DNA of 43,206 nt. Source: a virus. The notes under the pieces are model-generated. The model saw only the letters and a program-made list of their open reading frames with translations. It did no database searches and had not been told where the DNA came from. The position numbers and the translations under genes were made by a program. The stretch spans positions 1 through 43,206 of the IMG/VR virus record IMGVR_UViG_3300033153_003239. One strand, given 5' to 3'. Below are positions 1-43,206 of this stretch, piece after piece (positions within the stretch are counted from its first letter, which is position 1; each line of letters opens with the position of its first letter).

Positions 1-234
1 TTTGGTAGCCCTTAACTATTTGGTCGCCCTCAACTATTTGGTCGCCCTTAACTATTTGGTAGCCCTTAACTCTTTGGTCGCCCTTAACTATTTGGTAGCC
101 CTCAACTCTTTGGTCGCCCTCAACTCTTTGGTAGCCCTCAACTCTTTGGTAGCCCTCAACTATTTGGTAGCCCTCAACTCTTTGGTCGCCCTCAACTCTT
201 TGGTCGCCCTTAACTATTTGGTCGCCCTCAACTA
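1..234. repeat. Tandem 18-bp repeat array, 13 units of TTTGGT[A/C]GCCCT[T/C]AACT[A/C]; continuation of the array at 42708-43206
   Basis: Read directly. The 13 head-to-tail 18-mers are identical except at unit positions 7, 13 and 18, each with two alleles. Confidence 0.97.
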
Positions 235-349
235 TTAGATTAATTTTAATTATTGCATTTCCATTTATTATTAAATTTCCACTAAATTCAAACCAATAAC
301 CTTTATTTACAACACCCTCATAATTTTCATCTATAATTATATCTTTCAT
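1..349 (-). CDS. 5' part of the hexapeptide-repeat protein gene. ATG is at 349-347. The ORF runs off the window start and continues in frame at 43128 once the ends are joined.
   Basis: The initiation region AAGGATAAAAAGATG is the reverse complement of 347-361. Translation gives MKDIIIDENYEGVVNKGYWFEFSGNLIINGNAIIKINL followed by 13 x [I/R]V[K/E]G[D/Y]Q. There is a 4-nt gap to the upstream minus gene. The ORF is missing from the track because it is open at the window edge. Confidence 0.75.
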   Translation of the reverse strand, partial: MKDIIIDENYEGVVNKGYWFEFSGNLIINGNAIIKINLIVEGDQIVKGDQRVEGDQRVEGYQIVEGYQRVEGYQRVEGDQRVEGYQIVKGDQRVKGYQIVKGDQIVEGDQIVKGYQ

Positions 350-353
350 CTTT

Positions 354-584
354 TTATCCTTCTCTCTTTACATTTTCATAGAACTCAACACGACCCTCTA
401 AATCAGGGAAGTTAAATATGAGGTCTAAATAATTTTGTTTAGTAAAATTTCTCTTACCACCTAACATCTCTCTAGCTACAGCTAGTCTCTCACCAAGTAT
501 TACACGTATCTCTTTTATAGTCAGTTTCTCTATATGTAAGAGATAGTGTATAGTAGCACTTGTACTCATTACCACTTTATTCAT
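354..584 (-). CDS. Small helix-turn-helix DNA-binding protein (76 aa from the MNKVV start)
   Basis: Track ORF 354..641, trimmed to an internal ATG that overlaps the upstream stop by 8 nt. HTH-like segment LTIKEIRVILGERLAVAREML. Confidence 0.6.
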   Translation of the reverse strand: MNKVVMSTSATIHYLLHIEKLTIKEIRVILGERLAVAREMLGGKRNFTKQNYLDLIFNFPDLEGRVEFYENVKREG

Positions 585-891
585 CCAGTAACTCCTTAAA
601 TGTTGTAAATGCTTTTTCACAAAGATTAGCAGTATCAGCACTAAATTCTTTCACATTGTCATAATTAGCATAATTAATAGCTATTTTTAGTTTAGCTACA
701 TGATGGTCTAACTCCTCACAAAACTCTTTGTAAGTTGGCTTCCATTCTTGCCAGTTACCTTTTTCAGCATTAGCTCTCAGTTCATATCGCATTTGATTAA
801 TAAAACTTTCATCAAGAACCGCACCTCTTTTATTTTCTTCAAGTTTTGCAATACTATCATCTACCTGTTTATCTTTTAATGAATCATACAT
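577..891 (-). CDS. Hypothetical helical protein (104 aa)
   Basis: Track ORF in the tightly packed minus operon. A weak EFCE...EFSAD spacing recalls all-alpha NTP pyrophosphohydrolases but is not convincing. Confidence 0.6.
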   Translation of the reverse strand: MYDSLKDKQVDDSIAKLEENKRGAVLDESFINQMRYELRANAEKGNWQEWKPTYKEFCEELDHHVAKLKIAINYANYDNVKEFSADTANLCEKAFTTFKELLDE

Positions 892-3164: not shown

Positions 3165-3165
3165 C

Positions 3166-3450: not shown

Positions 3451-3451
3451 T

Positions 3452-13167: not shown

Positions 13168-13177
13168 GGGGTAAGTG

Positions 13178-14119
13178 ATGGAACTGTTTGAAATACATGC
13201 TGGAAGTTTCATAGGAGTAGCCGATGCTACTCCACTTGGACCTAAAAAGCAAATCAGAGCTATTGATGCTGGTACTCAAACTTTCAACTATGGTTCTGTA
13301 TCAACTAGGAACGTAGCGGATGCTATAGGTACTGGTAATGGTGTATTAACTGCATTTACTTGTAATAATACTCCATTGGTTAATGCTGATGAGTTAACTT
13401 TATATGTAGATGCTGTAGAAATTGACCCATCGTATTATAGTGTTGTATTAGCAACTGGTGTTATTACAGTGCTTACAGTACCCACTGATAATATAGCTGA
13501 CGCTTTAGGTACTGGTGATGGTACAGAGGTTGATTTTACTTGTAACAACACTCCATTACTTAGTGATGAAGATTTAACTGTTTATGTTGATGCTGTAGAA
13601 TATCCAAAAACAGGTTACTCTGTTGTTTTAGCTACTGGTGTAGTAACTTTTGACCCAGTTGAAACTACTCATACAGATGATGCTATAGGTACTGGTGATG
13701 GTATAGAAACTGACTTTACTTGTAATAATATTCCGTTACTTAGTGGCGCTAGTCAAACAACTTATCCTCAAGGAGACTCGGGTTTAACTGTTTTTGTTGA
13801 TGGTGTAAAAGTAGACTCGTCAGAGTATACAGTTGTACTAGCTACAGGTGTCGTTACATTCGATGTAGCTCCACTTGATACGTTGGCTGTAACCGCTACT
13901 TATACTAGCAATGATGTTGCTGTAGCTAACGGACTAGATGTGACTGCTGATTATATTAGCTTGGAACCAGTAGGGGATACACTTGCTGTAACTGCTGATT
14001 ACCTTAGTGCCGATGTAACGACTAAAGCGGTTGCTATGTTAGCTGGAGAAGCTTTTGTTATTGGTGGCGGCTGTGAGAGCGTTACTTCTGAAGCTTTGAA
14101 AAAAGTTATATTATCTTAG
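13178..14119 (+). CDS. Head fibre / decoration-type protein with three tandem ~85-aa repeats
   Basis: Three repeats of the form A(I/L)GTG(N/D)G..(T/D)FTCNN(T/I)PL...(L/V)(Y/F)VD(A/G)V.......Y(S/T)VVLATGV(I/V)T(V/F). AAGGGG Shine-Dalgarno. Confidence 0.55.
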   Translation: MELFEIHAGSFIGVADATPLGPKKQIRAIDAGTQTFNYGSVSTRNVADAIGTGNGVLTAFTCNNTPLVNADELTLYVDAVEIDPSYYSVVLATGVITVLTVPTDNIADALGTGDGTEVDFTCNNTPLLSDEDLTVYVDAVEYPKTGYSVVLATGVVTFDPVETTHTDDAIGTGDGIETDFTCNNIPLLSGASQTTYPQGDSGLTVFVDGVKVDSSEYTVVLATGVVTFDVAPLDTLAVTATYTSNDVAVANGLDVTADYISLEPVGDTLAVTADYLSADVTTKAVAMLAGEAFVIGGGCESVTSEALKKVILS

Positions 14120-28454: not shown

Positions 28455-28703
28455 ATGAGTAAGAAACAAGATGATTTAGATAAGATAGATAAGTTGGTTA
28501 GAGAGAAGATAATTCATTGTCTTGATAACAATAAAACAGATATGCTTACTGACCTAAGCGTTGCTGTGTCTTATCTTGCTAAAAATAATGTGGTATCTGA
28601 AAAGAGTAAGAGTTCCGTAGAGGACAATACTAAGAAGAAGTTAGCCGATGCTAAGAAGAGAAGAGAAGGTGTTGTTGAAGAAGATGAAGAAGAGGAGTTT
28701 TAA
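28455..28703 (+). CDS. Small terminase subunit candidate (T7 gp18 position)
   Basis: 82 aa with an acidic tail. ATG overlap with the large terminase gene. GGTAGGAGG Shine-Dalgarno. Confidence 0.5.
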   Translation: MSKKQDDLDKIDKLVREKIIHCLDNNKTDMLTDLSVAVSYLAKNNVVSEKSKSSVEDNTKKKLADAKKRREGVVEEDEEEEF

Positions 28704-30430
28704 TGGACTTCACTAGACTTTCTCCACAAGAAACCGTTGATTACTTTACAAACTGTGAATGGGGTCAACATTACGAAGACGATAAGTATTTTGAAGATGC
28801 TGAACTTATGGATAACTTCATCGTGTTCTTCACGTATGTATTTGCATGGTTAAATCTTCCCAGACCAACTAAAGGTCAATACGCTATTGCTTTATGGTTA
28901 CAAGATAGTTCTAATCCTCACCGTATGGTTTGGGCTTCACGTGGTCTAGGTAAGTCGTTAGCTTCTCAGATATACGCTGTATGGCGTTATCTAAACGACC
29001 CTAATGAAAAGATATTAGTAATGTCTGCCGGTGCTGCTAGAGCAATTAACTACACTCAGTTCGTACAGAAGCTAATTAAGATGCTTCCAATCACTATAGA
29101 TATGACACCTAGACACAATATAGAGAGAACATCTGGTCAATCATTTGATGTTGCCGGAGCTGTTGCTTCAGATAGCCCAAGTATGTACGCGGTTGGTGCG
29201 GGTAATCAGGTTACGGGTATGAGAGCGAGTCTTGTAATCTATGATGATATTGAGACAGCTCAAACAGTTGAGTCTATGACGATGATGGATAAGATAGACA
29301 CATTTGCTAAAGAGGCGCAAAATCTTCTTATGTCTGGTAAAGATGAAAGTATTTGTTTATCTACACCTCACTCTATGTCTTCTATGTACATCGGTTGGTT
29401 AGACTCTGGATATAAACTATTAGCATTACCGGCTGAAGTTCCAGAAGACGATAGCGCTTATTTTGGCTCGTTGGCTCCACACATTAAAGAGATGATGGCT
29501 GAAGGTCTTGTTGGATTAGCTGTTGATGAGAGATTAGACAAAGAGTTCTTGATGTCTAAGAAGATGAGGATTGGTAAGTCTAAATACAAACTACAATACA
29601 TGTTAGACGTATCGGACGCTGATGATTTAAGATACCCACTTAAGCTAAATGATTTAATCGTTATGGATGTAGATGATGAAGTTGGACCGTTAAAGGTTTC
29701 ACATTCATCTATGCCTGATAATAATTTATATATTAAGCACAATGGGTTTAAAGCTGACAAGCTATACTCACCATCCTATGTGTCTGATGAAGTGGCTGAG
29801 TATGAGATGAAGTTGATGTCACTTGACCCATCGGGTAAAGGTAAAGATGAGATTGGTATATCAATAATATATTCACTTAATACTAGATTGTTTTTGAAAA
29901 AGATAACTGGTTTACAGGGTGGTTATGAAGATGAAAATATGATTAATATAGCAACTCTTTGTAAGATACATAAGATTGATACGTTGCTTATTGAGGAAAA
30001 TTGGGGTGGTGGTATGTTCACGAAGATGTTAGAGCCACACTTAAGAATGATAAGCCCTCTAACGGAGATTGATGAGGTTAATGTTAAGGGTCAAAAAGAG
30101 ATTCGTATTATAGAAAATTTAGAGCCACTTGTTAATCAACATAAATTGATTGTAGATAAAGATACTTTAGATAAAGATAAGAACGCTACAGCTATTAACA
30201 GTTTCACGTATCAGTTCAGTAAGATTACTAAAGAACGAGATAGCCTTAGAGCAGATGATAGGTTAGACAGTTTAGCTAATGGTATTATTTATATGATTGA
30301 TAAGATGAGTGATGATGAAGAGTTTGGTATGGAGTCGTATCAGATGGAACAAGGTAAAGACAATTTAGAATTTACCTTGAATAATTTTGGTTGGCAAGAA
30401 GCCAATACTAATTATGGAGATAGGTTTTAA
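28703..30430 (+). CDS. terL: Large terminase subunit (T7 gp19-like)
   Basis: 575 aa. Walker A-like SRGLGKS, Walker B LVIYDDIE, and a C-terminal nuclease region LLIEENWGGG. Confidence 0.88.
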   Translation: MDFTRLSPQETVDYFTNCEWGQHYEDDKYFEDAELMDNFIVFFTYVFAWLNLPRPTKGQYAIALWLQDSSNPHRMVWASRGLGKSLASQIYAVWRYLNDPNEKILVMSAGAARAINYTQFVQKLIKMLPITIDMTPRHNIERTSGQSFDVAGAVASDSPSMYAVGAGNQVTGMRASLVIYDDIETAQTVESMTMMDKIDTFAKEAQNLLMSGKDESICLSTPHSMSSMYIGWLDSGYKLLALPAEVPEDDSAYFGSLAPHIKEMMAEGLVGLAVDERLDKEFLMSKKMRIGKSKYKLQYMLDVSDADDLRYPLKLNDLIVMDVDDEVGPLKVSHSSMPDNNLYIKHNGFKADKLYSPSYVSDEVAEYEMKLMSLDPSGKGKDEIGISIIYSLNTRLFLKKITGLQGGYEDENMINIATLCKIHKIDTLLIEENWGGGMFTKMLEPHLRMISPLTEIDEVNVKGQKEIRIIENLEPLVNQHKLIVDKDTLDKDKNATAINSFTYQFSKITKERDSLRADDRLDSLANGIIYMIDKMSDDEEFGMESYQMEQGKDNLEFTLNNFGWQEANTNYGDRF

Positions 30431-31975: not shown

Positions 31976-32239
31976 TTAAGTCCTAGCTTCCCATTCATTA
32001 CAGTGAAATTTGGTTTCGTCTAAGAAATTTACAAGCTTTGTTATACACTCATCTTGTTCACTATATATTCTACAGTTATGACAAGACCTAGCTTCAAAAG
32101 CATCAAGAATTTTTATACACTCCTCCACATCTTCTTGGTCTTTCTTAAGATTATGCTTTTCTTTAAAATAATCATCAGCATAGTCAGCCCAACCAATAGC
32201 TTCTGTTAGTGTTTCTTTTATAAATATTATATCTTTCAT
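31976..32239 (-). CDS. Hypothetical Cys-containing protein (87 aa)
   Basis: Track ORF. Cys pattern CHNC...C...HC. Confidence 0.6.
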   Translation of the reverse strand: MKDIIFIKETLTEAIGWADYADDYFKEKHNLKKDQEDVEECIKILDAFEARSCHNCRIYSEQDECITKLVNFLDETKFHCNEWEART

Positions 32240-33570
32240 CTTAATGCTCCTAATAAATCAGCTTGAACAACATCTTTTTTAGCTAAAGCTGTCATCAAGT
32301 CGTGTTCAATATCCCCCACAGCGATGTGCATAGCACGGACTTTTTTGGTTTGTCCTTGTCGATGTAAGCGTTTATTGAATTGTTGGTAAAGTTCCAACGA
32401 CCATGTAAATCCATACCACACTACTAACGCTCCACCATCTTGTAGATTTAGTCCGTGTCCAGCACTAGCTGGGTGAGCCAAAAGAATTTTGATTTTCTTT
32501 TTATTCCATGCTTCCACAGCTTCCCCTTTTTTATCAAGGACAACTGAATCTGGGAAAGCGGTTTTAAGCGCCTCGAGTTCATGTTTGTAGTTGTAGGCAA
32601 CCAGAATATTATCATTTGGGTTTTCATCTATAATCTCCTTTAAAGTATCTATTTTTAATTCATGGAAGTGGTGTACTAAACCTTTTTCATCATACATGTT
32701 ACCGCTACAAAATTGCAACAACTTATTGCTCAACGTTGCAGCACTCATAGCAGTTATTTTCTCTTCTTTGTTAATTGCTAATATCATATCGTTTTTAAAC
32801 TTTAGATATTTTCTTAAGTTCTCACCCTCTAACTTGTTTCCAAGTACAGAAGGTATGAAGTCAGGCAACTCAAGATAATCCTCAGAAGACATAGATAACA
32901 CTAGGTCTTGTATTTGGTCTTGTATCAATTTAACAGCACCATCACGCAACGTATAGGTCCAACCCATGAAGTCTTTATCAAAGTATCTAGTTCTAAACAT
33001 CGTTTGCGTTCTACCCAATCTAAATCCACCATCAAGCAAAAAGAATTGTGAATATAAATCAGCGTAACCGTTTGAAGCTGGAGTACCTGTAAGCAAAACC
33101 ATACGGTTAATGTGAGGTGACATTTTCTTTAAGGCTTTGAAGCGTTGTGATGATGGTGATTTGAATGAAGAACTTTCATCAATGACGACCATATCAAAAG
33201 ACCAATTCTTACCAAGATGAAGGACTAAAGCTTTAACATTTTCTCTATTGATAATATAAATATCAGCTTTTCTTTGAAGACCTGTAAGCATGTTTTTCTT
33301 ACCACCACTAAGATTTGAGAACGTTAAATCTTTTGTATGCTCCCACTTCTTAGCTTCTGAAATCCATACCGTATTGCAAACGCGTAGAGGGGCAATAACC
33401 AATACTTTAGAGACACTAAAACTATCGTACATTAAATCCTCTATAGCTGTTAGTGTTGATACTGTCTTACCTAAACCCATGTCTAAGAACAATGCGGATT
33501 TAGGAATATCTAAAATATGGTCAACAGCACGTTCTTGATATTTATGTAGTTTGTTTTTTGAGAGCATCAT
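32236..33570 (-). CDS. SNF2-family (SF2) helicase / DNA translocase
   Basis: Motif I is GLGKT, motif II VIDESS, motif III LTGTP, motif VI HRQGQ. Confidence 0.88.
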   Translation of the reverse strand: MMLSKNKLHKYQERAVDHILDIPKSALFLDMGLGKTVSTLTAIEDLMYDSFSVSKVLVIAPLRVCNTVWISEAKKWEHTKDLTFSNLSGGKKNMLTGLQRKADIYIINRENVKALVLHLGKNWSFDMVVIDESSSFKSPSSQRFKALKKMSPHINRMVLLTGTPASNGYADLYSQFFLLDGGFRLGRTQTMFRTRYFDKDFMGWTYTLRDGAVKLIQDQIQDLVLSMSSEDYLELPDFIPSVLGNKLEGENLRKYLKFKNDMILAINKEEKITAMSAATLSNKLLQFCSGNMYDEKGLVHHFHELKIDTLKEIIDENPNDNILVAYNYKHELEALKTAFPDSVVLDKKGEAVEAWNKKKIKILLAHPASAGHGLNLQDGGALVVWYGFTWSLELYQQFNKRLHRQGQTKKVRAMHIAVGDIEHDLMTALAKKDVVQADLLGALR

Positions 33571-33858: not shown

Positions 33859-34449
33859 TCAATACCAACCACAATCATCTTCATTAGATAACTCAACAGT
33901 TTTGTCATATCTCCAATGTCTAACCTCGTCAATGTCTTCAAACTTATCTGTTAACTCCTCCATCTCATCAAGATTGTCACCGCTGGTATCATTCCAAATA
34001 TCACAATATGCAAAGTCGAAAAGTCTGTCAGGCTCAAAGTCATGTATATCACTGATAACAATTCTAACTTTATCGTTTAAATCTAAATTCGGAACGATAA
34101 AATCGTGAAGCTCTTGGCTGATTTCAACAACTGTAATACTTAATACTTCAGGTCTCTCTTGTAAAGCTAGTAAAATCATACCAATACCTAAACCCCCTAT
34201 AAGCACATGACCTGTTGCTTCTTGCACTAACTCAATATTAGTCTCTTGCTCCATCCAGCTATCAGACATTACAATCTCTCGCTTATCGTTATCTCTCAAC
34301 ACACAAACAAGTTGGTCTTTTTGTCCAGCATATTCAGGATTCCAACTGTCAACCTCACTAGCTTGAATGTGTTTAATCTCATAGTTTTCTGACATCGCTT
34401 CAGGATGCACCTTTGTCATATCTTTAAATTCTTTATAATACATAATCAA
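33859..34449 (-). CDS. Class-I SAM-dependent methyltransferase / spermidine-synthase-fold protein
   Basis: VLIGGLGIG (motif I), VVEIS (motif II acidic residue) and DFAYCDIW (motif IV-like). Overlaps the 3' end of the polymerase gene by 17 nt. Confidence 0.55.
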   Translation of the reverse strand: MIMYYKEFKDMTKVHPEAMSENYEIKHIQASEVDSWNPEYAGQKDQLVCVLRDNDKREIVMSDSWMEQETNIELVQEATGHVLIGGLGIGMILLALQERPEVLSITVVEISQELHDFIVPNLDLNDKVRIVISDIHDFEPDRLFDFAYCDIWNDTSGDNLDEMEELTDKFEDIDEVRHWRYDKTVELSNEDDCGWY

Positions 34450-36244
34450 CTCCTAAGTCTTTTAATTTTGATACCGCTTCATCGATATACCACTGAAAAT
34501 CTAAATCAGCAGGTCTATATTCTGTTAAATCCATCATTGGCTTCACCCCTTTTCCCTCAGCTGTTTTTGGTACGAGGTTCCCATTACTACTGTAAGTAAT
34601 CTTATCACCCTCAGTTGAATAGTACCATCTAACCATCTTTCCTAAATACTCACCCTTATAGACACCACCACTCTTTACAGTTCTAGCAGATACAAATTGA
34701 TTTATATCTTCACATCTTAATATTGTTTCAGCTAGTCTTGTACCGTTAAGTAAATATTCTCTAATAGCTGTATAGACTATCGGGGTTGAACGACCCTTAC
34801 TTAATGTTGTCTCAGCATAGATACCTTTTGACTTAACATAATCATCATAGACAGCAACGTAGTTATTAACATCTTTTGCATGTAAAGCTTCATACTCACC
34901 ATGCTCCATCTCAAAACCAGTTAGAAGCTCCAAGTCAAATACGAGTGTCTCAGCTAAAGCTATCTTATCACGTGGACAGAAATACTCAAGACCATCTGTA
35001 TTTGCACTAACTACCGGTATACCGTTTAGCTCCATATCTTCAATCAACATAAGTAATGTTAATTGACCAGTAATCGTTGTAGCCAACAACATGTTGGGTG
35101 AATAAAGTTTTGAATACTTAGAACCAAACTTACCAAAACTACCATTAATAGTAATTTTAAGTGAGTCGGCTACAAGTTTATTACCTTCAGCTTTTGCTTT
35201 TAGTCTTGTCTCAACTATCCTACGATAAACATCTAAGAACTTTTTACCTAAGTGTTTAGGATAAAGACCTTGATTTAAAATAATAAATGGGTAGTATGAA
35301 GCGAAGTCAGCATTACGCATAACGTTGTTCTCGTCACTAATCACACTAATAGACTTCTCTTGTGAGTGTAACCCACCTATACCCAACTTGTATGTTGTGT
35401 TGCCAATAACTATTTTATGATTAGCTAAAATCTTAGGCATCTTCACAGCACCATTATCAGCTATCTCAAAATTAATATCTTCAAGCAACTCAACTAACTC
35501 GTTAAGCTTTTTATCTTTGAAGTGAATATAATCGGGAGCTTGATAGTGAGCTTTGAAATTAGATGGTAATACAGGTTTCTTAGCTGTTACACCAAACTTT
35601 TTTAACTCAGACACAATGACTGTCTCTGCTATTTGAGCATCAGATTTAGAACGTAGGTCAAGACCGTATTCTTCACCCATACTAACACGCAACTGTATAC
35701 GGTCTTTAATTGCTTCATATAAATCATGTGTAACTTCAACATCATTCTCACAATAATCTCTCAGCCCATCTTTTTGACTTTCATCTATAGCAAGATGTGG
35801 GTCAAGATAAAACTCTTGTAACTTCTTAGACCCAACACGTGTACCATAATTCTTTAGTGAAATCATAACAGCCGGTGAAGGCTCACTAACATCAAAATGG
35901 TCATAACGTCTAGGCTCAATGTCTAGTTTACGATAAGTTAGCCAGTCGGGTTGATTCTTTTCCACTATATCTTTAGAAGCACTATATAGTTGTTGACAGT
36001 TAGCGCCACTTAACGCGTAGTTAATTAGTGGCATGTCATATTTAACAGAGTTAAAACCAAATGATGTGTATTTAGATAACATGTTGTTTAGTTTATTCTT
36101 TTGTTCTCTTGTTAACTTAGTACCAGCTCCGTACATATCCATCTTTAGATATTTGTTGTGCTGTAAACCCTTAATAACAATAAGAAAATAATTAGGGAGA
36201 ACTTCTATATCGAGGCAGATTAATTTATTCATACTCGCCACCAT
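34433..36244 (-). CDS. Family-B DNA polymerase with 3'-5' exonuclease domain
   Basis: ExoI is LDIEV, ExoII NSVKYD, ExoIII YCENDV. Polymerase motif A is DFASYYP, motif B KITINGSFGKFG, motif C SANTDG. Confidence 0.82.
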   Translation of the reverse strand: MVASMNKLICLDIEVLPNYFLIVIKGLQHNKYLKMDMYGAGTKLTREQKNKLNNMLSKYTSFGFNSVKYDMPLINYALSGANCQQLYSASKDIVEKNQPDWLTYRKLDIEPRRYDHFDVSEPSPAVMISLKNYGTRVGSKKLQEFYLDPHLAIDESQKDGLRDYCENDVEVTHDLYEAIKDRIQLRVSMGEEYGLDLRSKSDAQIAETVIVSELKKFGVTAKKPVLPSNFKAHYQAPDYIHFKDKKLNELVELLEDINFEIADNGAVKMPKILANHKIVIGNTTYKLGIGGLHSQEKSISVISDENNVMRNADFASYYPFIILNQGLYPKHLGKKFLDVYRRIVETRLKAKAEGNKLVADSLKITINGSFGKFGSKYSKLYSPNMLLATTITGQLTLLMLIEDMELNGIPVVSANTDGLEYFCPRDKIALAETLVFDLELLTGFEMEHGEYEALHAKDVNNYVAVYDDYVKSKGIYAETTLSKGRSTPIVYTAIREYLLNGTRLAETILRCEDINQFVSARTVKSGGVYKGEYLGKMVRWYYSTEGDKITYSSNGNLVPKTAEGKGVKPMMDLTEYRPADLDFQWYIDEAVSKLKDLGVDYVL

Positions 36245-37363: not shown

Positions 37364-38485
37364 TTAACACTCCTCAAATTCATCAGCGACTTTTGTTATC
37401 GCCGGTCTTTTATCATCTAATTTTGCAACGACAGGTTTACCTTCAGGTTTAATCAACATCCCTTGAAGCTTCTTATCATCAGGTCTCATTTTTAAAATCT
37501 TAGTCATAGGGATTAACTTCTTAACCCATAGGTCTTCAGCTTTAACTTTACGATTAAGATATTTAGCTACCTCGTCTTCATCAACCCACTTGCGATTAGT
37601 CTTAGCTTCAACTAACTTATAACCATCTATCTCGTTACCCTCTTGTAATAACTCAAGGCTACGAGCTTCTACAGCTTTAATGAAAGCTACGATTAAATCT
37701 TTGTTGTCAAGTATCTTTTTGATATGGTTTGTATCGATTAAGTCAGCTTGACCATCAATATCTTCCAAGTTATCAAACGCGCCTTTAACAGTATTTTCAA
37801 CATGAGACTTTAAAGCTTCACAGTTTGTTTGATGTAAGCACCATTGACAAGCTTTTTGTGTAGGACTAAACTCAGTCTTGCCATCTATAATAGCTTTAGC
37901 TTGACCTTGTGCATACGCTTTGAACTTCATTAAGTCTTCGTAGTGAAGTTCCCATGTGTCAATATGCCCCGCTCTAGTTTGTACGATGTGCAAAGTTATC
38001 ATATCGATATCATAAATATCTTCTAACTCACCAACAGCACCAATCGCATAAAGCATTAGTTGTGTATTGCTCTCAGCTTTAACTGTACCGTGACCAGTTT
38101 TCAAATCCATAACATGAAGATGATTACCATTAAGTACCGTTGCATCAGATGTTCCAAATTGACCCTTAGATATTTCTGATAAATCAAATTGTTCTTCAAT
38201 TAATACAACGCTATTTTTGTCAATAAATGAATTAACATAATCGGCATACTCTTCAGCGCATTGCAACATCTCAGCATCAACTTGAAACGTTACACCCTGT
38301 TCAGTATGCACATCACCAATTTCAATAACTTTATCGTTAAGTAATAACTCACCTAAGAAGTGAACATTTGTACCCCACACAGCGGCAGAACCGCTTTTAT
38401 TCTCATACTTGTCACTAGCTTCCACCGAAGAGGTACAAGTGAGCCATCGAGAAGAACTCGATGGACTTAATCTCGCATGTTTCAT
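37364..38485 (-). CDS. PD-(D/E)XK nuclease, Cas4/RecB-like (DUF2800-type)
   Basis: VMDLKTG, QLMLYA (QxxxY), and four Cys (N-terminal C plus CQWCLHQTNC), as expected for an Fe-S cluster. Confidence 0.78.
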   Translation of the reverse strand: MKHARLSPSSSSRWLTCTSSVEASDKYENKSGSAAVWGTNVHFLGELLLNDKVIEIGDVHTEQGVTFQVDAEMLQCAEEYADYVNSFIDKNSVVLIEEQFDLSEISKGQFGTSDATVLNGNHLHVMDLKTGHGTVKAESNTQLMLYAIGAVGELEDIYDIDMITLHIVQTRAGHIDTWELHYEDLMKFKAYAQGQAKAIIDGKTEFSPTQKACQWCLHQTNCEALKSHVENTVKGAFDNLEDIDGQADLIDTNHIKKILDNKDLIVAFIKAVEARSLELLQEGNEIDGYKLVEAKTNRKWVDEDEVAKYLNRKVKAEDLWVKKLIPMTKILKMRPDDKKLQGMLIKPEGKPVVAKLDDKRPAITKVADEFEEC

Positions 38486-38859: not shown

Positions 38860-39177
38860 TTACGCTCCTAACTCTTGTAAAGATTTATATAACTTGCCGT
38901 AGTCTTCTTCAGACACTTCAGCTAACTTTGGTGCATAATTGCCAATAGTCTCTTTAACTTTTTCACGGTCAGTTCTAGTAACAGCATTTTTAGCAGATTC
39001 TTTTAAATCTTCCAGCTTAATCTTAGAGCCTGTAGCTTCTTTTTTCTTTGGGGTAGGCTTAGGGTTAGGTTTTTCTTCTTTAGCCTCTGTAGGTGTCTTA
39101 GCTTTACGCTCACCACCTAGTAATGCTAAAACCTCAGCAACTTCTTCTTCGTTCTTTGTATCAAATGTGATTTTCAT
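38860..39177 (-). CDS. Hypothetical Lys/Pro-rich protein (105 aa)
   Basis: Track ORF. AAGGATAAAAAGATG initiation region. Confidence 0.7.
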   Translation of the reverse strand: MKITFDTKNEEEVAEVLALLGGERKAKTPTEAKEEKPNPKPTPKKKEATGSKIKLEDLKESAKNAVTRTDREKVKETIGNYAPKLAEVSEEDYGKLYKSLQELGA

Positions 39178-39236
39178 CTTTTTATCCTTATATTTTTGTG
39201 TGTATTGAAATTGTACTTAAGTTTCCTTAAGTAGTC

Positions 39237-41618
39237 CTAAAGCTCGTCTTCTTCCAAATCGTCAAATTCATCAACGACTTGTTGCTCTTTATCTTGGGTG
39301 TATGTCTTAAGATTTAGAGGGTAATATTTGATTGGCTTACCGTTGACTTTAATTGTCTTGGTTTGACTACCAACAAAATGACCCATCATTTTTTCGCCAT
39401 ATTTACCGTGGTCTAAAGTTGACACCTCTTTGAGTAGGTCTTCAACCATTGCTGTTACATCACCTTTTCGCTTGACGTAATACTCACCTTGTCTAATTAA
39501 AATATCACCTTCATCGGATGCAAGGTGTTTTAAATTAGATATGACTTGTTCAGAAACTCCATAAAGAAATTCATCTAAGTCGTTGTTGAGAGGTAATCTG
39601 TAGCGTGATTGTAAATCGCTAAAGTATTGCTTATCGTACTTATCATCAGTCAAACATCTCTTAAAATGATAACGAAGATAAGAACTGATAACCTCTGTAT
39701 ATAACGCGCTGTCATGTTGGAACACCGGACTGTGAGTAACATGATATGCTGACTCATTTTCCAATAACTCCACTTGTAAGAAACGATTATACAACTCGTC
39801 TGAATTGTTACGTGTAGCTGTTTTATGTGTTGAAGTTAATGCTGTGAAGTGGAGTTTAATCTTTTGTGTACCACCACCCGCACCGAACTCATCAACATAA
39901 AGGTCTTTGTCAAGGTCTTTAATCTCAGCTTCTAAAGCTTTGTTAGCTTCATCGATAAGTAATAAACCGCTGTTTTTAACCCCGTTAACGACTTGTGTAC
40001 CAATACCCTTGTCACCTCTAAGACCGTTAAGTAAACGTGGCATAGTTATCTTTTGAAAACCAAGCATCGTATAAATTTCTGTCTTACCTGTGTTGGAGGG
40101 TGCAACTGTCATTAGTCTGTTAAGCTTTTGTTCTTTGTAACGAATACTTAGAGCTATTAACTCAACAACGTCTTTAGCTTTACCATTCCAAATCTTTTGC
40201 ATGAAGTCATTAATAATTTCTTCGTTATTAATAAACTCTTTAACATTCCAAAAAGGGTCTTTTCTACCTACGAGTAGTGGAAGCTTCTCAACACCCTCAG
40301 CCTCTTCGATGTTGTAAGATATGTCTTCACCAAGCATGTAGTCAGTTGTCATTTCAGTACCGCTGATTACCGTAGGGTTAGACACAATGCTCTTAGCCAT
40401 CTTAGGAGCTATACCCAAGTTGATTAGTGTTGTGGTTGCTGCTCCGCTACCAAGGTCTTCAACTTTTTTCTTACCAATACGGACAACATACTTTGAACCT
40501 TTGAGATAAGCTTTTGCATCAACACCCGCTTGTTCCACCTCTTCTTCAGTGACTTCGTGTTGCAAGTCTTTGCTAAGAGTTCTAGCTTGTACAACTTTAA
40601 CCGTTGGGTCATCTTTTTTAAGCTCTTTCATACGAGAGTTAATCTTAACAGCAAGTTCATCACGCACTTTGTTGTCAAGTTTACCACGGGTATTTAAACG
40701 CGGAGTTGTTGATATGTTCTCAATAATCTTGTCTAACTCATTGGCATTAGCTTTTGATATATCAGTCTCAATATCGTTCACTGAGAGTTCATTGACAATA
40801 CTTCGTAAACGCTTGTAAGTTGTTTGTGTTGGCTTTAAAGCTCCGGAGTTCCATTTTTTAAGAGTAAAATCTTCATCGTATTTTGCAGAAGACCTCTTAG
40901 AAAATTCAATAAAGATTTCTAAACCATCTTCACCAGCTTCATAGCGGTCATAAATACACATACCTACAGCTAACCAAGTGTCGTAGTCTAAACCTTCGGG
41001 TAAAGATTCAAGTAGCGCTTGGAGTTCTTCATCCGGCATTTCTCCAGCTTTGATTGCAACACTTAATCCCATATCATCGTCATAAGGATTATTTGTAGCT
41101 TCAGCGCGTACTCTCATTTTGAACACTTGTTCCATCGTTGGGTCAAACTTGTTAACGTAAAATTCTAAGTCTTCATCAACCCATTTGTAAGAGGCTAACT
41201 CGTCTTGTTTATTTTTAACAGTTGTTCCAACGATAGGTATTACCGATTGATAACCGGCATAAATGTCAACAGCTTTGTAACCGTGATTACCGATTACCAT
41301 TTCGGGATTTGGATTTTCAAAAGCGTAATGCTCACCACCGCTAGGTGTTAAAGCAAAAGGCTGTGGTGTGTAGTCTAAGTTGAGGTCTTCTAACAATCTA
41401 GCAAACTCATTAGTCTCTTCATACTTGTCATTGTCCACAATAATTAAATTTGGTGGAATAATACCAACGTAACCCGTAGCCTTCTCGTTCCAATCTTCAT
41501 TGTCACGGTCAGCATAAGCACCTTCTCTAAACGCATGTTTTTTGTATCGTGCAGATTTTTGTAATACAAACCCTTGTGAATGATACTGTTCATAAGAATT
41601 TTTGAGAGTATTATTCAT
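39237..41618 (-). CDS. Bifunctional primase-polymerase (AEP) fused to an SF3/D5-type helicase
   Basis: AEP motifs VDNDK, SGGEHYAF and VDIYAG. Walker A APSNTGKT, Walker B LLLIDEAN. AAGGAG Shine-Dalgarno. Confidence 0.85.
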   Translation of the reverse strand: MNNTLKNSYEQYHSQGFVLQKSARYKKHAFREGAYADRDNEDWNEKATGYVGIIPPNLIIVDNDKYEETNEFARLLEDLNLDYTPQPFALTPSGGEHYAFENPNPEMVIGNHGYKAVDIYAGYQSVIPIVGTTVKNKQDELASYKWVDEDLEFYVNKFDPTMEQVFKMRVRAEATNNPYDDDMGLSVAIKAGEMPDEELQALLESLPEGLDYDTWLAVGMCIYDRYEAGEDGLEIFIEFSKRSSAKYDEDFTLKKWNSGALKPTQTTYKRLRSIVNELSVNDIETDISKANANELDKIIENISTTPRLNTRGKLDNKVRDELAVKINSRMKELKKDDPTVKVVQARTLSKDLQHEVTEEEVEQAGVDAKAYLKGSKYVVRIGKKKVEDLGSGAATTTLINLGIAPKMAKSIVSNPTVISGTEMTTDYMLGEDISYNIEEAEGVEKLPLLVGRKDPFWNVKEFINNEEIINDFMQKIWNGKAKDVVELIALSIRYKEQKLNRLMTVAPSNTGKTEIYTMLGFQKITMPRLLNGLRGDKGIGTQVVNGVKNSGLLLIDEANKALEAEIKDLDKDLYVDEFGAGGGTQKIKLHFTALTSTHKTATRNNSDELYNRFLQVELLENESAYHVTHSPVFQHDSALYTEVISSYLRYHFKRCLTDDKYDKQYFSDLQSRYRLPLNNDLDEFLYGVSEQVISNLKHLASDEGDILIRQGEYYVKRKGDVTAMVEDLLKEVSTLDHGKYGEKMMGHFVGSQTKTIKVNGKPIKYYPLNLKTYTQDKEQQVVDEFDDLEEDEL

Positions 41619-41651
41619 TTAGTCTCCTTGTGGGTGTAAAATATTAGCCTA

Positions 41652-41768
41652 CAAGTTGAAGATGCTCCCACACTTCTCAACTTGGACTGAATTAACAGTT
41701 ACGGCTAATCGAAGCACCCGCTCGAAAGCGAAGTGCGGTTGAGAAGTATGGGAGCTTCGATTAGTCGT
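41652..41768 (-). promoter_or_regulatory. GC-rich leader upstream of the primase gene, with interleaved inverted repeats and a UUCG hairpin
   Basis: 41664-41681 pairs with 41738-41755 (18 bp). 41701-41715 pairs with 41754-41768 (15 bp). There is a local hairpin at 41652-41684. The hairpin at 41713-41736 has a UUCG loop in the minus orientation. Confidence 0.6.
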
Positions 41769-41807
41769 TCTGATATTAGAATCATAACATAACTTTGGTA
41801 AATAAAA

Positions 41808-42157
41808 GTAGTAACTGGGATTACTACCTCTTCAAACATCGTGAATAAAGGGTCTGTAGAGAATTGTCATTTTTTACGTTACAACTTTTAACTACCCTAA
41901 TACTACCCCACTTACTACCGCTACAGCACCCTAAAACACGAGGTTTAAAGCACATTTTGATTAACGGTAGTAAGGGTAGTAATGCTCTCTATGTTTACTA
42001 AATATCTTTTATTTTTTCCTATATAATTAAAATACTTCTCTTAACACGTATGAGATTACTACCTTACTACCTTTCTCTGTAGCTCCGTGCCTCGTGGAAG
42101 TAGAGCGGTAGTAACGAAGTAGTAAAAAGTAGTAAAAAATAGGGGGTACTTACTACC
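41808..42157. repeat. Field of ~14 copies of the 7-8-mer TTACTACC / GGTAGTAA in both orientations
   Basis: Copies begin at about 41808, 41821, 41890, 41900, 41912, 41966, 41975, 42056, 42064, 42107, 42118, 42128 and 42150. Confidence 0.85.
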
Positions 42158-42163
42158 TTTTGG

Positions 42164-42460
42164 CTAAATGTCCTCCAATTTGTTAATTAATTCAGAAATT
42201 TTGGTTTGTTCGTAATTAAAATCTTCCATTTTAATTTCCTCTTCTGAAACAATTTTGTCTAAATTACTAGAAATTTCATCTAATTCTTTAGAAAACTTAT
42301 AAGCTTTACTGTTCATGTTTGTCACTTCGTTCTCAAGTTCATCAACATATTCAGCTTGTTCTTCTTGAAGTTCTGCTATTTCAGCAGTAGTTAATACAAC
42401 CAATTTACCACTTGTAAAGTAACAGTTATATATCTCATTTCCTTGATAATGTTTAGTCAT
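42164..42460 (-). CDS. Hypothetical coiled-coil protein (98 aa)
   Basis: Track ORF. Start overlaps the upstream stop. Confidence 0.65.
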   Translation of the reverse strand: MTKHYQGNEIYNCYFTSGKLVVLTTAEIAELQEEQAEYVDELENEVTNMNSKAYKFSKELDEISSNLDKIVSEEEIKMEDFNYEQTKISELINKLEDI

Positions 42461-42999
42461 TACTTATCCTTTTCATCATACGCTTCAACTAAATTAGAAT
42501 GTGTAGATAGTACAAAGTTTTTCCATCTAGTCCACCACTCTAAAGCACCAGAGTCCATATTTCTAATATCCTCATCTGTAAAACTAGCCCACGTCTCAGG
42601 TGAATGTTTTTGACAACCAATTTTTATTAAATCACTCATAAAATAAAGTTGGTATCTATCTTGGATAAACGATAAAGAGAATTTAGTTTTAAGACCTAAT
42701 ATTTCAATTTCGCCCTCAACTCTTTGGTCGCCCTCAACTCTTTGGTAGCCCTCAACTATTTGGTCGCCCTCAACTATTTGGTCGCCCTCAACTCTTTGGT
42801 AGCCCTTAACTATTTGGTCGCCCTCAACTATTTGGTCGCCCTCAACTCTTTGGTCGCCCTTAACTATTTGGTCGCCCTTAACTATTTGGTCGCCCTCAAC
42901 TCTTTGGTAGCCCTTAACTATTTGGTCGCCCTCAACTATTTGGTCGCCCTTAACTATTTGGTAGCCCTTAACTCTTTGGTACTCTTTGGTAGCCCTCAA
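42460..42999 (-). CDS. 3' part of the hexapeptide-repeat protein gene: repeats plus a unique ~80-aa C-terminal domain. No ATG start (TTG in the track). Probably the frameshifted continuation of the ORF ending at 42968.
   Basis: Track ORF. About 14 hexads, then EIEILGLKTKFSLSFIQDRYQLYFMSDLIKIGCQKHSPETWASFTDEDIRNMDSGALEWWTRWKNFVLSTHSNLVEAYDEKDK. Confidence 0.65.
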   Translation of the reverse strand: MRATKEYQRVKGYQIVKGDQIVEGDQIVKGYQRVEGDQIVKGDQIVKGDQRVEGDQIVEGDQIVKGYQRVEGDQIVEGDQIVEGYQRVEGDQRVEGEIEILGLKTKFSLSFIQDRYQLYFMSDLIKIGCQKHSPETWASFTDEDIRNMDSGALEWWTRWKNFVLSTHSNLVEAYDEKDK

Positions 43000-43206
43000 C
43001 TCTTTGGTCGCCCTTAACTATTTGGTCGCCCTCAACTCTTTGGTCGCCCTTAACTATTTGGTAGCCCTCAACTCTTTGGTCGCCCTCAACTCTTTGGTCG
43101 CCCTTAACTATTTGGTCGCCCTCAACTCTTTGGTAGCCCTTAACTATTTGGTCGCCCTCAACTATTTGGTCGCCCTTAACTATTTGGTAGCCCTTAACTC
43201 TTTGGT
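42968..43206 (-). CDS. Continuation of the repeat-protein ORF that starts at 349. It terminates at TAA 42970-42968, just after the truncated repeat unit.
   Basis: The frame is conserved across the junction because 43128 is divisible by 3. Reads ...DQRVEGYQRVPKS*. The joined ORF is 169 aa. Confidence 0.65.
   Translation of the reverse strand, partial: QRVKGYQIVKGDQIVEGDQIVKGYQRVEGDQIVKGDQRVEGDQRVEGYQIVKGDQRVEGDQIVKGDQRVEGYQRVPKS
43129..43206. repeat. Terminal duplication: the last 78 nt are identical to nt 1-78
   Basis: Base-by-base comparison of both ends. Confidence 0.95.

Follow-up and report, generated by a model that had tools for sequence, protein, structure and literature searches.

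A tandem array of 18-bp units in a phage early gene encodes a predicted three-sided β-solenoid with three variable positions per hexad

The closest described counterparts of the gene analysed here are pentapeptide-repeat proteins of phages that carry a C-terminal domain (C-domain) with the pattern QIGCQxH...W...MD..AL.FW..WK, represented by Rheinheimera phage Barba8S gp045, Caulobacter phage RapA gp021 and phrog_31567. These are small proteins, encoded among early or replication genes, in which a short cap leads into a repeat solenoid and the solenoid into the C-domain. Their repeat has a period of five residues, A(D/N)LXX, and forms a four-sided helix with 20 residues per turn. Characterised pentapeptide-repeat proteins are regarded as DNA mimics targeting gyrase (PMC7261183).

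Two other groups come close in helix geometry. The hexapeptide transferases of the left-handed β-helix class (LbH; PF00132; LpxA, NeuO and gamma-carbonic anhydrase) are trimeric enzymes with a period of six, three hexads per turn and the motif [LIV]-[GAED]-X2-[STAV]-X. Bactofilins (PF04519) and the YdcK β-solenoid repeat (PF18836) form triangular β-helices with ~18 residues per turn and glycine in the corners.

The present gene shares with the phage pentapeptide proteins its small size, its genomic setting, the order of cap, solenoid and C-domain, and the C-domain itself, which is 45-49% identical over ~50 residues, G, C, W and K being invariant; a Foldseek search of BFVD ranks these proteins first. 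It differs from them in its repeat, which has a period of six, x-V-x-G-x-Q, and in its helix, which is predicted to be three-sided with 18 residues per turn.

The window is the whole 43,206-nt stretch of viral DNA that was analysed (IMG/VR record IMGVR_UViG_3300033153_003239). The gene runs on the minus strand across the junction of its two ends, and the features of the region are, in reading order:

354..641, minus strand: upstream ORF
357..361, minus strand: ribosome-binding site AAGGA, 7 nt upstream of the ATG and directly after the stop of the upstream gene
236..349, minus strand: N-terminal cap (N-cap), 38 codons, translation MKDIIIDENYEGVVNKGYWFEFSGNLIINGNAIIKINL
1..235, minus strand: N-terminal part of the hexad array, 13 complete units of 18 bp, translated as [I/R]V[K/E]G[D/Y]Q
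42712..43206, minus strand: C-terminal part of the hexad array, including the frame-breaking partial unit
42981..43206, no strand assigned: extra stretch of 226 nt, 12 units plus 10 nt, ending in the third copy of a 78-mer
42975..42984, minus strand: aberrant partial unit of 10 nt, a tandem duplication of CTCTTTGGTA and the only frame-breaking irregularity
42460..42711, minus strand: C-domain, 83 aa and the stop, EIEILG...LIKIGCQKHSPETWASFTDEDIRNMDSGALEWW...KDK
42164..42460, minus strand: downstream gene, 98 aa, translationally coupled through a TAATG overlap
39237-41618, minus strand: primase gene, further downstream

A preliminary description of this DNA had pointed to an initiation region and a tight operon context, and both are present: AAGGA precedes an ATG at 349-347, the stop of the upstream gene adjoins AAGGA at 354-356, and the TAATG overlap lies at 42460. 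In the window the hexad gene is upstream of the primase gene. At the related locus L008 it comes first after a 500-bp divergent intergenic region; in Aeromonas phage Aer_P220 the gene lies in the early region, ahead of the RNA polymerase gene, and in RapA it has the DNA polymerase gene on one side and the helicase gene on the other. The window gene sits in the replication and early block of a ~43-kb podovirus-like phage. When 25 kb were compared by megablast with 50,697 phage records, there was no match at the genome level.

The repeat array itself is real. TRF places period-18 arrays at 1-236 and 42710-43206, and a regular-expression parse across the wrap finds 35 full units of TTTGGT[A/C]GCCCT[T/C]AACT[A/C], together with partial units of 13 nt at 42710 and 10 nt at 42975-42984. 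Three of the 18 nucleotide positions vary, with two alleles each, and seven of the eight combinations occur, the missing one being CTC (RVKGDQ). On the minus strand the hexad reads [I/R]-V-[K/E]-G-[D/Y]-Q. The head-to-tail array at both ends, the three two-allele sites with their seven combinations, and a 78-nt end duplication (the sole exact terminal overlap is 78 nt) had all been described, and are borne out. The absence of RVKGDQ is not a rule, since L008 carries five such hexads. The earlier tally of 35 full units and two partial ones stands for the window as given, but the count hinges on the assembly, as set out below.

A real protein-coding gene, read from the minus strand, has the array as its central part. 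This strand, proposed as the coding one from the outset, carries intact ORFs in relatives (209 aa in L005, 281 aa in L008, and also in L009, L010, L011 and L014, all with arrays internal to their contigs). Between the window and L005, synonymous codon changes outnumber non-synonymous ones, at 7:1 for the N-cap and 16:9 for the C-domain. The plus-strand frame, LVALN[Y/S], was rejected: it is open merely because the unit is stop-free, it turns into LVAFHY-type peptides where a lineage uses different synonymous codons, and conservation of the flanks follows the minus frame.

As assembled, the window does not contain the ~340-aa ORF that had been anticipated, because the 10-nt duplication shifts the frame; the N-terminal part terminates in RVPKS and a stop. 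This irregularity coincides with a conflict between assemblies. JGI contig Ga0366832_1001625 is 42,980 bp long and stops at window position 42980, and its bases 39164-42980 (3,817 compared) are identical to those of the window, so that the last 226 nt of the window are an extra stretch missing there. The aberrant unit begins 1-2 nt past 42980. The terminal 78-mer is present three times, starting at 1, 42903 and 43129 (bases 1-78 are copies of both 43129-43206 and 42903-42980), and a 114-nt exact repeat, 42867-42980 = 43093-43206, reaches the contig end with its second copy. The stretch 42981-43206 has the appearance of a side loop in the assembly graph. Since 226 mod 3 = 1, its removal restores the reading frame, and closing the circle at 42980->79 yields an intact 263-aa ORF with 23 hexads. 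Different closures of the circle give a protein of 263-335 aa, and with closures and contigs in conflict, unit number and order are assembly-dependent. The 10-nt unit is probably an assembly join, and the 35-unit count and the frameshift most likely reflect mis-assembly of the repeat, the intact version having 23 hexads and 263 aa.

The frameshift could also be real in the phage, leaving the gene truly inactivated, either as a pseudogene or as a phase variant (on/off) of a contingency locus prone to slippage. The window as given does carry it, a 10-nt tandem duplication is a plausible slippage product, and arrays of this kind are mutable, with lengths that differ among relatives and several contigs that break within the array. 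We nevertheless consider inactivation unlikely, given that the aberrant unit falls at the end of an otherwise identical public contig, just beyond the longest internal repeat, that an intact ORF returns once the 226 nt are removed, and that the ORF is intact in the six relatives named above.

These assembly features also bear on whether the entire array is an artefact and no such gene exists. Both contig ends lie inside the array, the terminal 78-mer is triplicated, two contig versions differ by 226 nt, and several related contigs terminate inside their arrays. The idea is effectively refuted by independent loci: the same architecture is found on at least 10 independent contigs from different samples, the array is contig-internal and within an intact ORF in six contigs, and the coding signatures agree across them. 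All arrays, in the window and in relatives, come from short-read metagenome assemblies, so their long-range unit order is uncertain in every case. More generally, such arrays break short-read assemblies and produce false 'circular' closures, false frameshifts and mis-annotated genes.

The preliminary description found the protein to fit no known phage family; profile searches show otherwise. The repeats match phrog_7964 (E = 5.9e-35) and phrog_5070 (E = 1.1e-25), and the C-domain matches phrog_31567 (E = 2.4e-10). By tblastn the C-domain is found in 126 phage records, and a C-domain profile built from 8 sequences retrieves 197 proteins, mostly with PF00805 repeats; G32, C33, W41 and K64 are invariant. 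An exhaustive phmmer search gave 834 hits, among them short orthologues that combine N-cap, hexads and C-domain. P0001 is 53% identical, with the same three-part architecture. N-cap and C-domain are shared by P0001, P0124, P0128, P0132, P0139 and P0162, all of which retain the N-cap motif IIDENYEG...INL. Seven viral loci are related to the window gene; the related loci with tandem hexads are L005 and L008-L015.

As in the wider family, a repeat solenoid lies directly upstream of the C-domain in a small protein (70-280 aa), and as in the x-V-x-G-x-Q subfamily, the hexads are tandem, V/I, G and Q being conserved while the other three positions vary. The hexad type accounts for only a handful of the 122 C-domain proteins examined. 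Within it, the six-residue period is evident from identity at lag 6 of 0.25-0.38 versus 0.04-0.07 at lag 5 (homologues P0001-P0003). The gene belongs to an uncharacterised, metagenome-only phage family composed of N-cap, x-V-x-G-x-Q solenoid and Cys/Trp C-domain.

Scans of Pfam, NCBIfam and PADLOC with the repaired protein, its parts or the close L005 homologue returned sub-threshold noise only, for example Glyco_hydro_92N and collagen-like adhesins. A sequence-profile search of the PDB with the window protein was empty, and the N-cap and unit patterns were unmatched in metagenome_contigs, a collection that evidently also lacks Ga0366832_1001625. No family member has an experimental or curated function, and literature searches on early phage proteins of the pentapeptide-repeat or solenoid type brought up no functional study of the family. 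P0131 bears the JGI label 'Zn-binding protein involved in type VI secretion', which has the look of noise from automated annotation and was set aside.

Structure prediction points to a β-solenoid. The AF2 model of window:42463-42975(-) reached pLDDT 91.5 and pTM 0.69 from an alignment that is shallow over the hexads. Its strands follow a 5/4/3-residue pattern that repeats every 18 residues, and over 14 hexads the strands include Q 14 times, I/R 13 times, V 13 times and G never. The predicted fold is a three-sided β-helix with three hexads (18 residues) per turn. In this model each strand would be formed by Q-[I/R]-V, with Gly at all the corners. If side chains alternate along the strand as they usually do, V and Q are expected to point into the core, leaving I/R, K/E and D/Y exposed. 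The model is in keeping with the earlier suggestion of a solenoid with constant V, G and Q and three variable exposed positions. The C-domain is predicted at pLDDT 92-98 as a β-hairpin and three helices. An AF2 model of P0001 (82-row alignment) was good for the C-domain and poor for the hexads (pLDDT 30-60), and Foldseek matches obtained with it were discarded as meaningless.

The resemblance to the LbH hexapeptide rule, which had been raised for this array, does not extend to family membership. The AF2 strand pattern does suggest three hexads per turn as in LbH transferases, and the window hexad shares their period, their exposed variable face and, at position i, their aliphatic residue. At position i+4, however, every hexad has Gln where the LbH motif needs a small residue ([STAV]), and the trimeric enzyme context is absent. 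The protein has no PF00132 hit at E <= 10, and of the two repeat families proposed for profile checks, the pentapeptide family (PF00805) is likewise unmatched. Hexads of the Aer_P220 type give sub-threshold hits to LpxA, GlmU and PaaY models.

Among structures in the PDB, for which all Foldseek E-values exceed 0.01, the top match of the window model is the bactofilin 6ria (probability 0.99, TM-score (target) 0.66, rmsd 4.5 Å over 100 columns, E = 0.07), whereas LbH enzymes reach a probability of at most 0.09. The window protein resembles bactofilin and YdcK repeats in its predicted triangular helix, ~18 residues per turn and corner Gly, and the phmmer search with the window hexads retrieved a sister protein, P0180 (G-[DN]-A-x-V-x hexads, same C-domain), that scores above the thresholds of both PF18836 and PF04519. 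The protein might then be a bactofilin-like scaffold, polymerising end to end and organising phage replication or host cell structures. Besides the top structural match (Thermus bactofilin), the Pfam Bactofilin scores of P0180 (33 bits) and, below the cutoff of 27.9 bits, of P0157 (20.8 bits) favour this. Bactofilins polymerise via exposed helix ends, while here dedicated terminal domains cover both ends of the helix, which would argue against polymerisation. The window protein itself matches neither PF04519 nor PF18836, its turn number varies widely as against the fixed bactofilin core of ~six turns, and it differs further in its Gln ladder, which replaces a small or hydrophobic residue, and in unit DNA that is near-identical from unit to unit. 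A scaffold role is accordingly very unlikely.

Hexad runs of the V-x-G-x-Q type also occur in the trimeric autotransporter adhesins P0123 and P0126, which carry a YadA anchor and came up in the phmmer search at E = 7e-45 to 2e-29. These are large, secreted, trimeric surface proteins that, unlike the window protein, lack the N-cap and the C-domain, and the likeness may be that of a common solenoid motif rather than of orthology. Their hexad regions are unannotated by Pfam.

Comparison between lineages indicates how the array evolves. The pattern recurs in at least 10 related arrays, nine of which were measured base by base, and in all nine the same three nucleotide sites are polymorphic, with a minor-allele fraction of 0.19-0.61 at codon 1 nt 2, codon 3 nt 1 and codon 5 nt 1. 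In the seven arrays of greatest regularity, the remaining positions are almost all monomorphic; L011 and L012 have one or two extra variable sites each. The consensus units of the lineages differ solely at third codon positions (GTT/GTG/GTC, GAG/GAA, GGC/GGT/GGG, GAC/GAT, CAA/CAG), and these synonymous codons are uniform inside each array and different between lineages. The preliminary description had likened the array to a string in a small alphabet rather than a drifting duplication, and had asked whether the same three positions vary in relatives; the nine arrays agree on both counts. Uniform synonymous codons together with persistent three-site polymorphism indicate, at the level of sequence, concerted evolution with maintained surface heterogeneity.

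The mechanism we infer is one of unit turnover with selection on the surface. Units of 18 bp would be gained, lost and shuffled through slippage or unequal recombination, which would homogenise synonymous sites within a lineage, while selection would keep heterogeneity at exactly three surface residues. Such turnover and selection would give different unit strings and lengths in close relatives, and hexad numbers there are indeed 14, 23 to 35, and 26 (rod of ~22 to 56 Å); the N-cap encoded at L015 has the same amino-acid sequence as that of the window, with a different unit order. A diversity-generating retroelement target was considered and rejected: read on the coding strand, the alleles at the three sites are T/G, A/G and G/T, a pattern that is not adenine-specific. 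No reverse transcriptase was found in the subset of ORFs scanned.

The same comparison bears on whether the array acts as DNA, in the form of origin iterons, a packaging or recombination signal, or a protein-binding array, with the ORF incidental. Between 23 and 35 direct 18-bp repeats lie in a replication module upstream of a primase gene, iteron-sized units within coding sequence have a precedent in the lambda ori in gene O, and the window and L005 agree at 15 of 15 invariant unit positions, against a divergence of 8-12% in the flanks. Other lineages, however, alter the synonymous DNA yet retain the amino-acid hexad, and distant orthologues retain x-V-x-G-x-Q with degenerate DNA. Variation within arrays is almost entirely at three non-synonymous sites, synonymous variation is rare and confined to the more degenerate arrays, and the domains on either side, which continue the frame of the array, show purifying selection. 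We rejected the iteron reading and regard a role at the DNA level as highly improbable.

A DNA mimic or anti-restriction decoy, a function on which the preliminary description had speculated, is one candidate: an acidic, charge-patterned rod would occupy the DNA site of a host nuclease, gyrase or defence sensor, with Ocr, ArdA and the Qnr/MfpA pentapeptide proteins as precedents. With a pI of 4.6-4.7 and a net charge of -18 to -20 the window protein is acidic, the charge per hexad is -0.4 to -1.0 in most arrays, sister proteins with the same C-domain are pentapeptide-repeat proteins, and the gene lies within early or replication modules. A strongly acidic surface is not conserved in the family, which weakens the idea: pI is 6.76 in L005, where the array charge is +3, L012 is close to neutral, the pI is 6.3 for the pentapeptide homologue of Barba8S, and net charge per hexad ranges from -1.0 to +0.2 across arrays. 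Rod length spans a ~2.5-fold range between relatives, the three-sided cross-section is unlike the four-sided pentapeptide fold, and neither PADLOC nor the literature search linked the hexad family to anti-defence. In PMC7261183, DNA mimicry alone is reported to have failed to inhibit BREX, which we count as a further point against. DNA mimicry is thus quite improbable.

These analyses directly show the gene with its frame, the family, the predicted fold, the pattern of evolution and the conflict between assemblies; function is what we infer from them. Most likely, the gene encodes a fast-evolving early host-interaction protein acting in takeover or counter-defence. The C-domain, which is fused to pentapeptide solenoids in many phages, would most likely be the shared functional or target-binding module, and the solenoid would serve as a rigid, variable binding surface or spacer. 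The account as a whole, comprising a real minus-strand gene, a solenoid fold, unit turnover, a host-interaction role and a mis-assembled unit count in the window, is likely to hold. Phage early regions are rich in small uncharacterised proteins, many of which prove to be host-takeover or counter-defence factors. Here, a widespread family places one conserved C-terminal module on interchangeable pentapeptide or hexapeptide solenoids, and its hexapeptide branch gives an unusually clean signal, with DNA-homogenised units and three heterogeneous surface residues in many lineages. This pattern is a hallmark of repeat proteins that bind through variable residues, making the family a good candidate for a new phage-host interaction.

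A more specific and decidedly speculative proposal, to which we give a low probability, is that the exposed triplets act like the variable residues of TAL effectors, with unit order setting the binding specificity for a host macromolecule. The target would be a protein surface or a linear polymer, and phages would rewrite specificity by shuffling 18-bp units. If true, this would define a new class of modular, rapidly reprogrammable recognition proteins in phage early regions. The analogy is one of pattern: TAL effectors also have homogeneous tandem DNA repeats, variation at fixed residue positions, and repeat number and order that vary between close relatives. Three-site polymorphism that persists across lineages despite concerted evolution, and near-identical phages with different strings, are compatible with such a code. 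There is no sequence or fold relationship to TAL effectors, however, whose units are of 34 aa rather than 6, and a ligand role is drawn by analogy only. It may be mixed composition alone, rather than unit order, that matters.

In statistical terms, unit order looks near-random. A per-turn (lag-3) correlation, sought as support for three hexads per turn, was not found in the unit order. Identical neighbours are mildly depleted (z = -2.2), and D and Y tend to alternate at lag 1 (z = -2.7). The I/R and K/E alleles are associated in the window (p = 0.005); the association is weak in pooled arrays (p = 0.03) and reversed in L005.

Tandem Repeats Finder locates period-18 arrays at 1-236 and 42710-43206 of the window, which begins and ends with the same 78 nt, its sole prefix-suffix overlap. 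When the ends are joined, the pattern TTTGGT[A/C]GCCCT[T/C]AACT[A/C] parses them into 35 contiguous full units and two partial ones. Only three of the 18 unit positions are variable, and two alleles occur at each. Read on the minus strand, the unit is A[T/G]A GTT [A/G]AG GGC [G/T]AC CAA, which translates as the hexad [I/R]-V-[K/E]-G-[D/Y]-Q. The gene comprises an N-cap (38 codons), these hexads and a C-terminal domain (C-domain, 83 aa). The array, the units, the three two-allele sites, the minus-strand hexad and the start and stop context were all found again as the preliminary description had given them.

Features of the repeat gene (partial units from the pattern parse of the joined ends)
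361-357, minus strand: AAGGA, immediately after the stop codon of the upstream gene
349-347, minus strand: start codon ATG
42975-42984: partial unit of 10 nt
42710 edge of the array: partial unit of 13 nt
At 42460, minus strand: stop codon overlapping the start of the next gene, TAATG

Seven of the eight allele combinations are present. The absence of the eighth, CTC (RVKGDQ), had been remarked on; it holds for the window array but is no rule, as the related locus L008 has five copies.

The minus strand had also been proposed as the coding strand, and the relatives bear this out. In IMG/VR, scanning for the exact pattern brought up a closely related contig, IMGVR_UViG_3300033153_004268 (L005), whose intact 209-aa ORF has 14 full hexads, an N-cap one residue off that of the window and a closely similar C-terminus. 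Codon changes between the two are 7 synonymous and 1 non-synonymous in the N-cap and 16 synonymous and 9 non-synonymous in the C-domain, which indicates that the minus frame is under purifying selection. With L005, six loci have the array internal to the contig and an intact ORF (the others are L008, 26 hexads; L009, 14; L010, 21; L011, 17; L014, about 45). That independent loci carry such arrays excludes a pure artefact. Plus-strand ORFs (LVALN[Y/S]) were rejected as candidates; they stay open only because, read that way, the unit contains no stop codon. The L015 N-cap has the same amino acids as that of the window, with two synonymous differences; its array starts IVEGYQ-IVEGDQ-RVEGDQ-IVK, and that of the window IVEGDQ-IVKGDQ-RVEGDQ-RVEGYQ.

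Two of these contigs have further features. At its very start, about 0.9 kb upstream of the hexad gene, L005 carries a 60-bp tandem repeat (2-198; 3.3 copies, 95% identity). L014 is a 40-kb 'Candidatus Omnitrophota' MAG contig (JAJDCA010000088.1) and might be phage DNA that binning assigned to a bacterial MAG; its 321-aa ORF (2983-3945) has about 45 [IRK]V[EKV]G[DYN]Q hexads, a different N-cap and no C-domain.

As assembled, the repeat gene of the window is broken. The 10-nt unit at 42975-42984 is a tandem duplication of CTCTTTGGTA that shifts the reading frame; the N-terminal ORF terminates in RVPKS*, and the C-terminal part is only a 179-aa ORF with a TTG start. The gene could possibly be a true pseudogene or phase variant, but the frameshift coincides with an assembly discontinuity. 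The terminal 78-mer has three copies in the window (at 1, 42903 and 43129), a 114-nt exact repeat (42867-42980 = 43093-43206) ends where the contig ends, and the aberrant unit starts 1-2 nt past 42980. JGI contig Ga0366832_1001625 (sample 3300033148), found through look-up of a neighbouring 98-aa protein, is 42,980 bp long and stops at 42980; the 3,817 bases compared match window 39164-42980 without difference. The window therefore has 226 extra bases (12 units + 10 nt; 226 mod 3 = 1) that are absent from the JGI contig. Closing the circle from 42980 to 79 gives an intact 263-aa ORF with 23 hexads, whereas closing it from 43128 to 1 gives 35 units and the frameshift. The frameshift is more likely a mis-join in the repeat than biology; that it is real we consider improbable. 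Unit number and long-range unit order in the window are not reliable. Three related contigs (L012, L013, L015) end inside their arrays, so arrays of this kind routinely break assemblies.

The most interesting result here concerns which sites vary. Nine arrays were split into in-register 18-mers and the minor-allele fraction was taken per nucleotide. The comparison with related phages that had been called for shows the same three positions varying throughout: codon 1 nt 2, codon 3 nt 1 and codon 5 nt 1 are polymorphic in 9/9 arrays, at fractions of 0.19-0.61. Nearly all other positions are monomorphic in the seven most regular arrays, and L011 and L012 have one or two extra variable sites each. 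Consensus units of the lineages differ at synonymous third positions (GTT/GTG/GTC, GAG/GAA, GGC/GGT/GGG, GAC/GAT, CAA/CAG), which shows that each array was homogenised after its lineage split, that is, by concerted evolution. The three non-synonymous polymorphisms are nevertheless kept across lineages, usually as I/R, K/E and D/Y and sometimes with V, N or H. Within-array synonymous variation is far lower: the most regular arrays have none, and L012 alone has an appreciable amount; this points to selection or recurrent change as holding the three sites polymorphic. More distant orthologues keep V, G and Q and have many different residues at the variable positions. Arrays acting as DNA-level iterons would be an alternative, but this is contradicted by protein-level conservation across lineages with different codons. 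As far as the literature shows, maintained polymorphism at three sites under concerted evolution has not been described before; the architecture is a new variation on known kinds.

Pooled over seven arrays, unit order is near random: there is no lag-3 signal, identical neighbouring units are mildly depleted (z = -2.2), and D/Y tends toward lag-1 alternation (z = -2.7). Net charge per hexad ranges from -1.0 to +0.2, and the pI is 4.6-4.7 for the window protein vs 6.76 for L005. The order and charge data show neither information in unit order nor a conserved acidic DNA-like surface. What they show is therefore a mixed composition maintained at three positions, predicted to be exposed. A DNA mimic or decoy is still possible, but this reading is weakened, as neither charge nor length is conserved. 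Within the window, 1/34 adjacent unit pairs are identical, against a fraction of ~0.19 expected from unit frequencies; in L005, unlike the window array, runs of identical units are common. This difference could reflect biology or the assembler's repeat resolution.

The beta-solenoid proposed from the hexad pattern is upheld by structure prediction. An AlphaFold2 model of window:42463-42975(-), covering 14 hexads and the C-domain with an 82-row alignment, has a mean pLDDT of 91.5 and a pTM of 0.69. Strands of 5, 4 and 3 residues recur each 18 residues, followed by a hairpin across 'IKIGCQKH' and three helices. Over the 14 hexads, Q is in a strand in 14, I/R in 13, V in 13 and G in 0. Judging from strand alternation, V and Q presumably face the same side, into the core; I/R would lie on the opposite side, with K/E-G-D/Y at the corners. 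An earlier model, of the homologue P0001, was poor across the hexads, so the solenoid call rests on one confident model and on sequence links. One such link is the sister protein P0180, which is recovered by the window's hexads (phmmer) and passes Pfam B_solenoid_ydck (95 bits) and Bactofilin (33 bits, cutoff 27.9). The top meaningful Foldseek match in the PDB is Thermus bactofilin 6ria (probability 0.99, target TM-score 0.66, E = 0.07); left-handed hexapeptide enzymes reach a probability of at most 0.09. A bactofilin-like polymer would have a fold similar to the predicted one, but here the helix is capped at both ends. The protein appears to work like a capped beta-solenoid repeat protein.

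The preliminary description could place the protein in no phage family. Pfam indeed gives no match above noise, and membership in Hexapep, Bactofilin and Pentapeptide was rejected because the protein did not pass their profiles, the hexapeptide and pentapeptide searches having been proposed earlier. In PHROGs, however, the repeats match phrog_7964 (E = 5.9e-35) and phrog_5070 (E = 1.1e-25) and the C-terminus matches phrog_31567 (E = 2.4e-10), all listed with unknown function. The C-domain ('LIKIGCQKHSPETWASFTDEDIRNMDSGALEWW...') also terminates annotated pentapeptide-repeat proteins.

Other carriers of the C-domain
Rheinheimera Barba phages, 111 records: pentapeptide-repeat protein
Caulobacter phage RapA: gp021
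Acinetobacter phages
Yersinia phage fEV-1: g01, domain alone

A profile from eight C-domains retrieves 197 proteins, mostly of 70-160 aa with PF00805 repeats; few of these are of the hexad type. With the N-cap and 13 hexads as the query, exhaustive phmmer searching retrieves 834 proteins at E <= 1e-3, in four groups.

Groups of phmmer matches
Group 1: short orthologues with an 'IIDENYEG' cap, degenerate x-[VI]-x-G-x-Q hexads and the C-domain
Group 2: a different cap and a variant C-domain ('IKIGCK')
Group 3: G-[DN]-A-x-V-x hexads and the C-domain
Group 4: large trimeric autotransporter adhesins containing the same hexads

All family members whose origin was looked up come from metagenomes. The repeat protein belongs to a phage family of solenoids with the IGC C-domain (phrog_31567), in its x-V-x-G-x-Q branch.

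Several relatives deserve separate mention. In Aeromonas phage Aer_P220 (ON624112.1, ~3380-3890), the 'putative MFS-type transporter protein' CDS (3397-3705) is the wrong frame of an 18-bp array; the actual product is a V[SF]G[ND]AR hexad solenoid terminating in the same C-domain ('HIKAGCQLHQIKDW...'). In fEV-1 the leftmost gene of the genome, g01 (293-514), encodes the C-domain only (63 aa, 'MQIGCQRHKLEDWW...'), and its tblastn match begins 33 nt ahead of the start given in the annotation; perhaps this domain can function by itself, or else the genome end has lost a solenoid part. Among the 111 Barba records, many have the pentapeptide and C-domain gene no more than a few hundred bases from one end of the record, which suggests that it often sets the assembly breakpoint; in several it is unannotated or 'hypothetical'. 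In Rheinheimera phage Barba8S, gp043 (1874-2851; ~35 'NTG[NDF][RWQ]' five-residue repeats) lies two genes upstream of that gene, so two distinct low-alphabet repeat proteins stand side by side. Outside phages the V-x-G-x-Q-type motif is widespread: the trimeric autotransporter adhesins P0123 and P0126 (YadA anchor, stalk domains) have long, Pfam-unannotated V-x-G-x-Q / V-x-G-[DN]-S runs.

The window genome is podovirus-like and has no tRNAs.

Genes of the window
9019-10545: portal/adaptor
12241-13167: major head protein
14796-17618: tail protein
24681-28430: internal virion protein
28703-30430: large terminase
32236-33570, minus strand: helicase
34433-36244, minus strand: DNA polymerase
37364-38485, minus strand: exonuclease
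39237-41618, minus strand: primase

The repeat gene belongs to the early and replication block, which runs leftward, and is located upstream of the primase gene. In L008 it comes first after a 500-bp divergent intergenic region; the Aer_P220 homologue is in the early region, ahead of the RNA polymerase gene, and the RapA homologue is between the genes for DNA polymerase and helicase. Across the family the C-domain is conserved, and the solenoid can vary freely in type, length and surface. This suggests that the C-domain may be the shared functional module and the solenoid a rigid, variable surface or spacer, in what would be a fast-evolving early host-interaction factor. The literature yielded no experiments on any family member. 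As a lead the repeat protein is sound and reproducible, and its signature is unusual; the window's own copy is compromised by assembly.

Elsewhere in the window, a 180-bp tandem repeat (13322-13745; 2.4 copies, 73% identity) lies in ORF 13175-14119(+). This ORF comes just behind the gene for the major head protein and encodes a 314-aa structural-block protein matching Pfam DUF2460; the tandem repeat probably reflects a domain repeated within a virion protein. The early block also encodes an AAA_5 (MoxR/dynein-type) ATPase (4311-5351, minus strand), labelled 'porphyrin biosynthesis' in PHROGs (phrog_249), followed by a DUF7192 protein (3452-4300, minus strand), a pair that we take to resemble the cobaltochelatase-like CobS/CobT pairs of marine phages.
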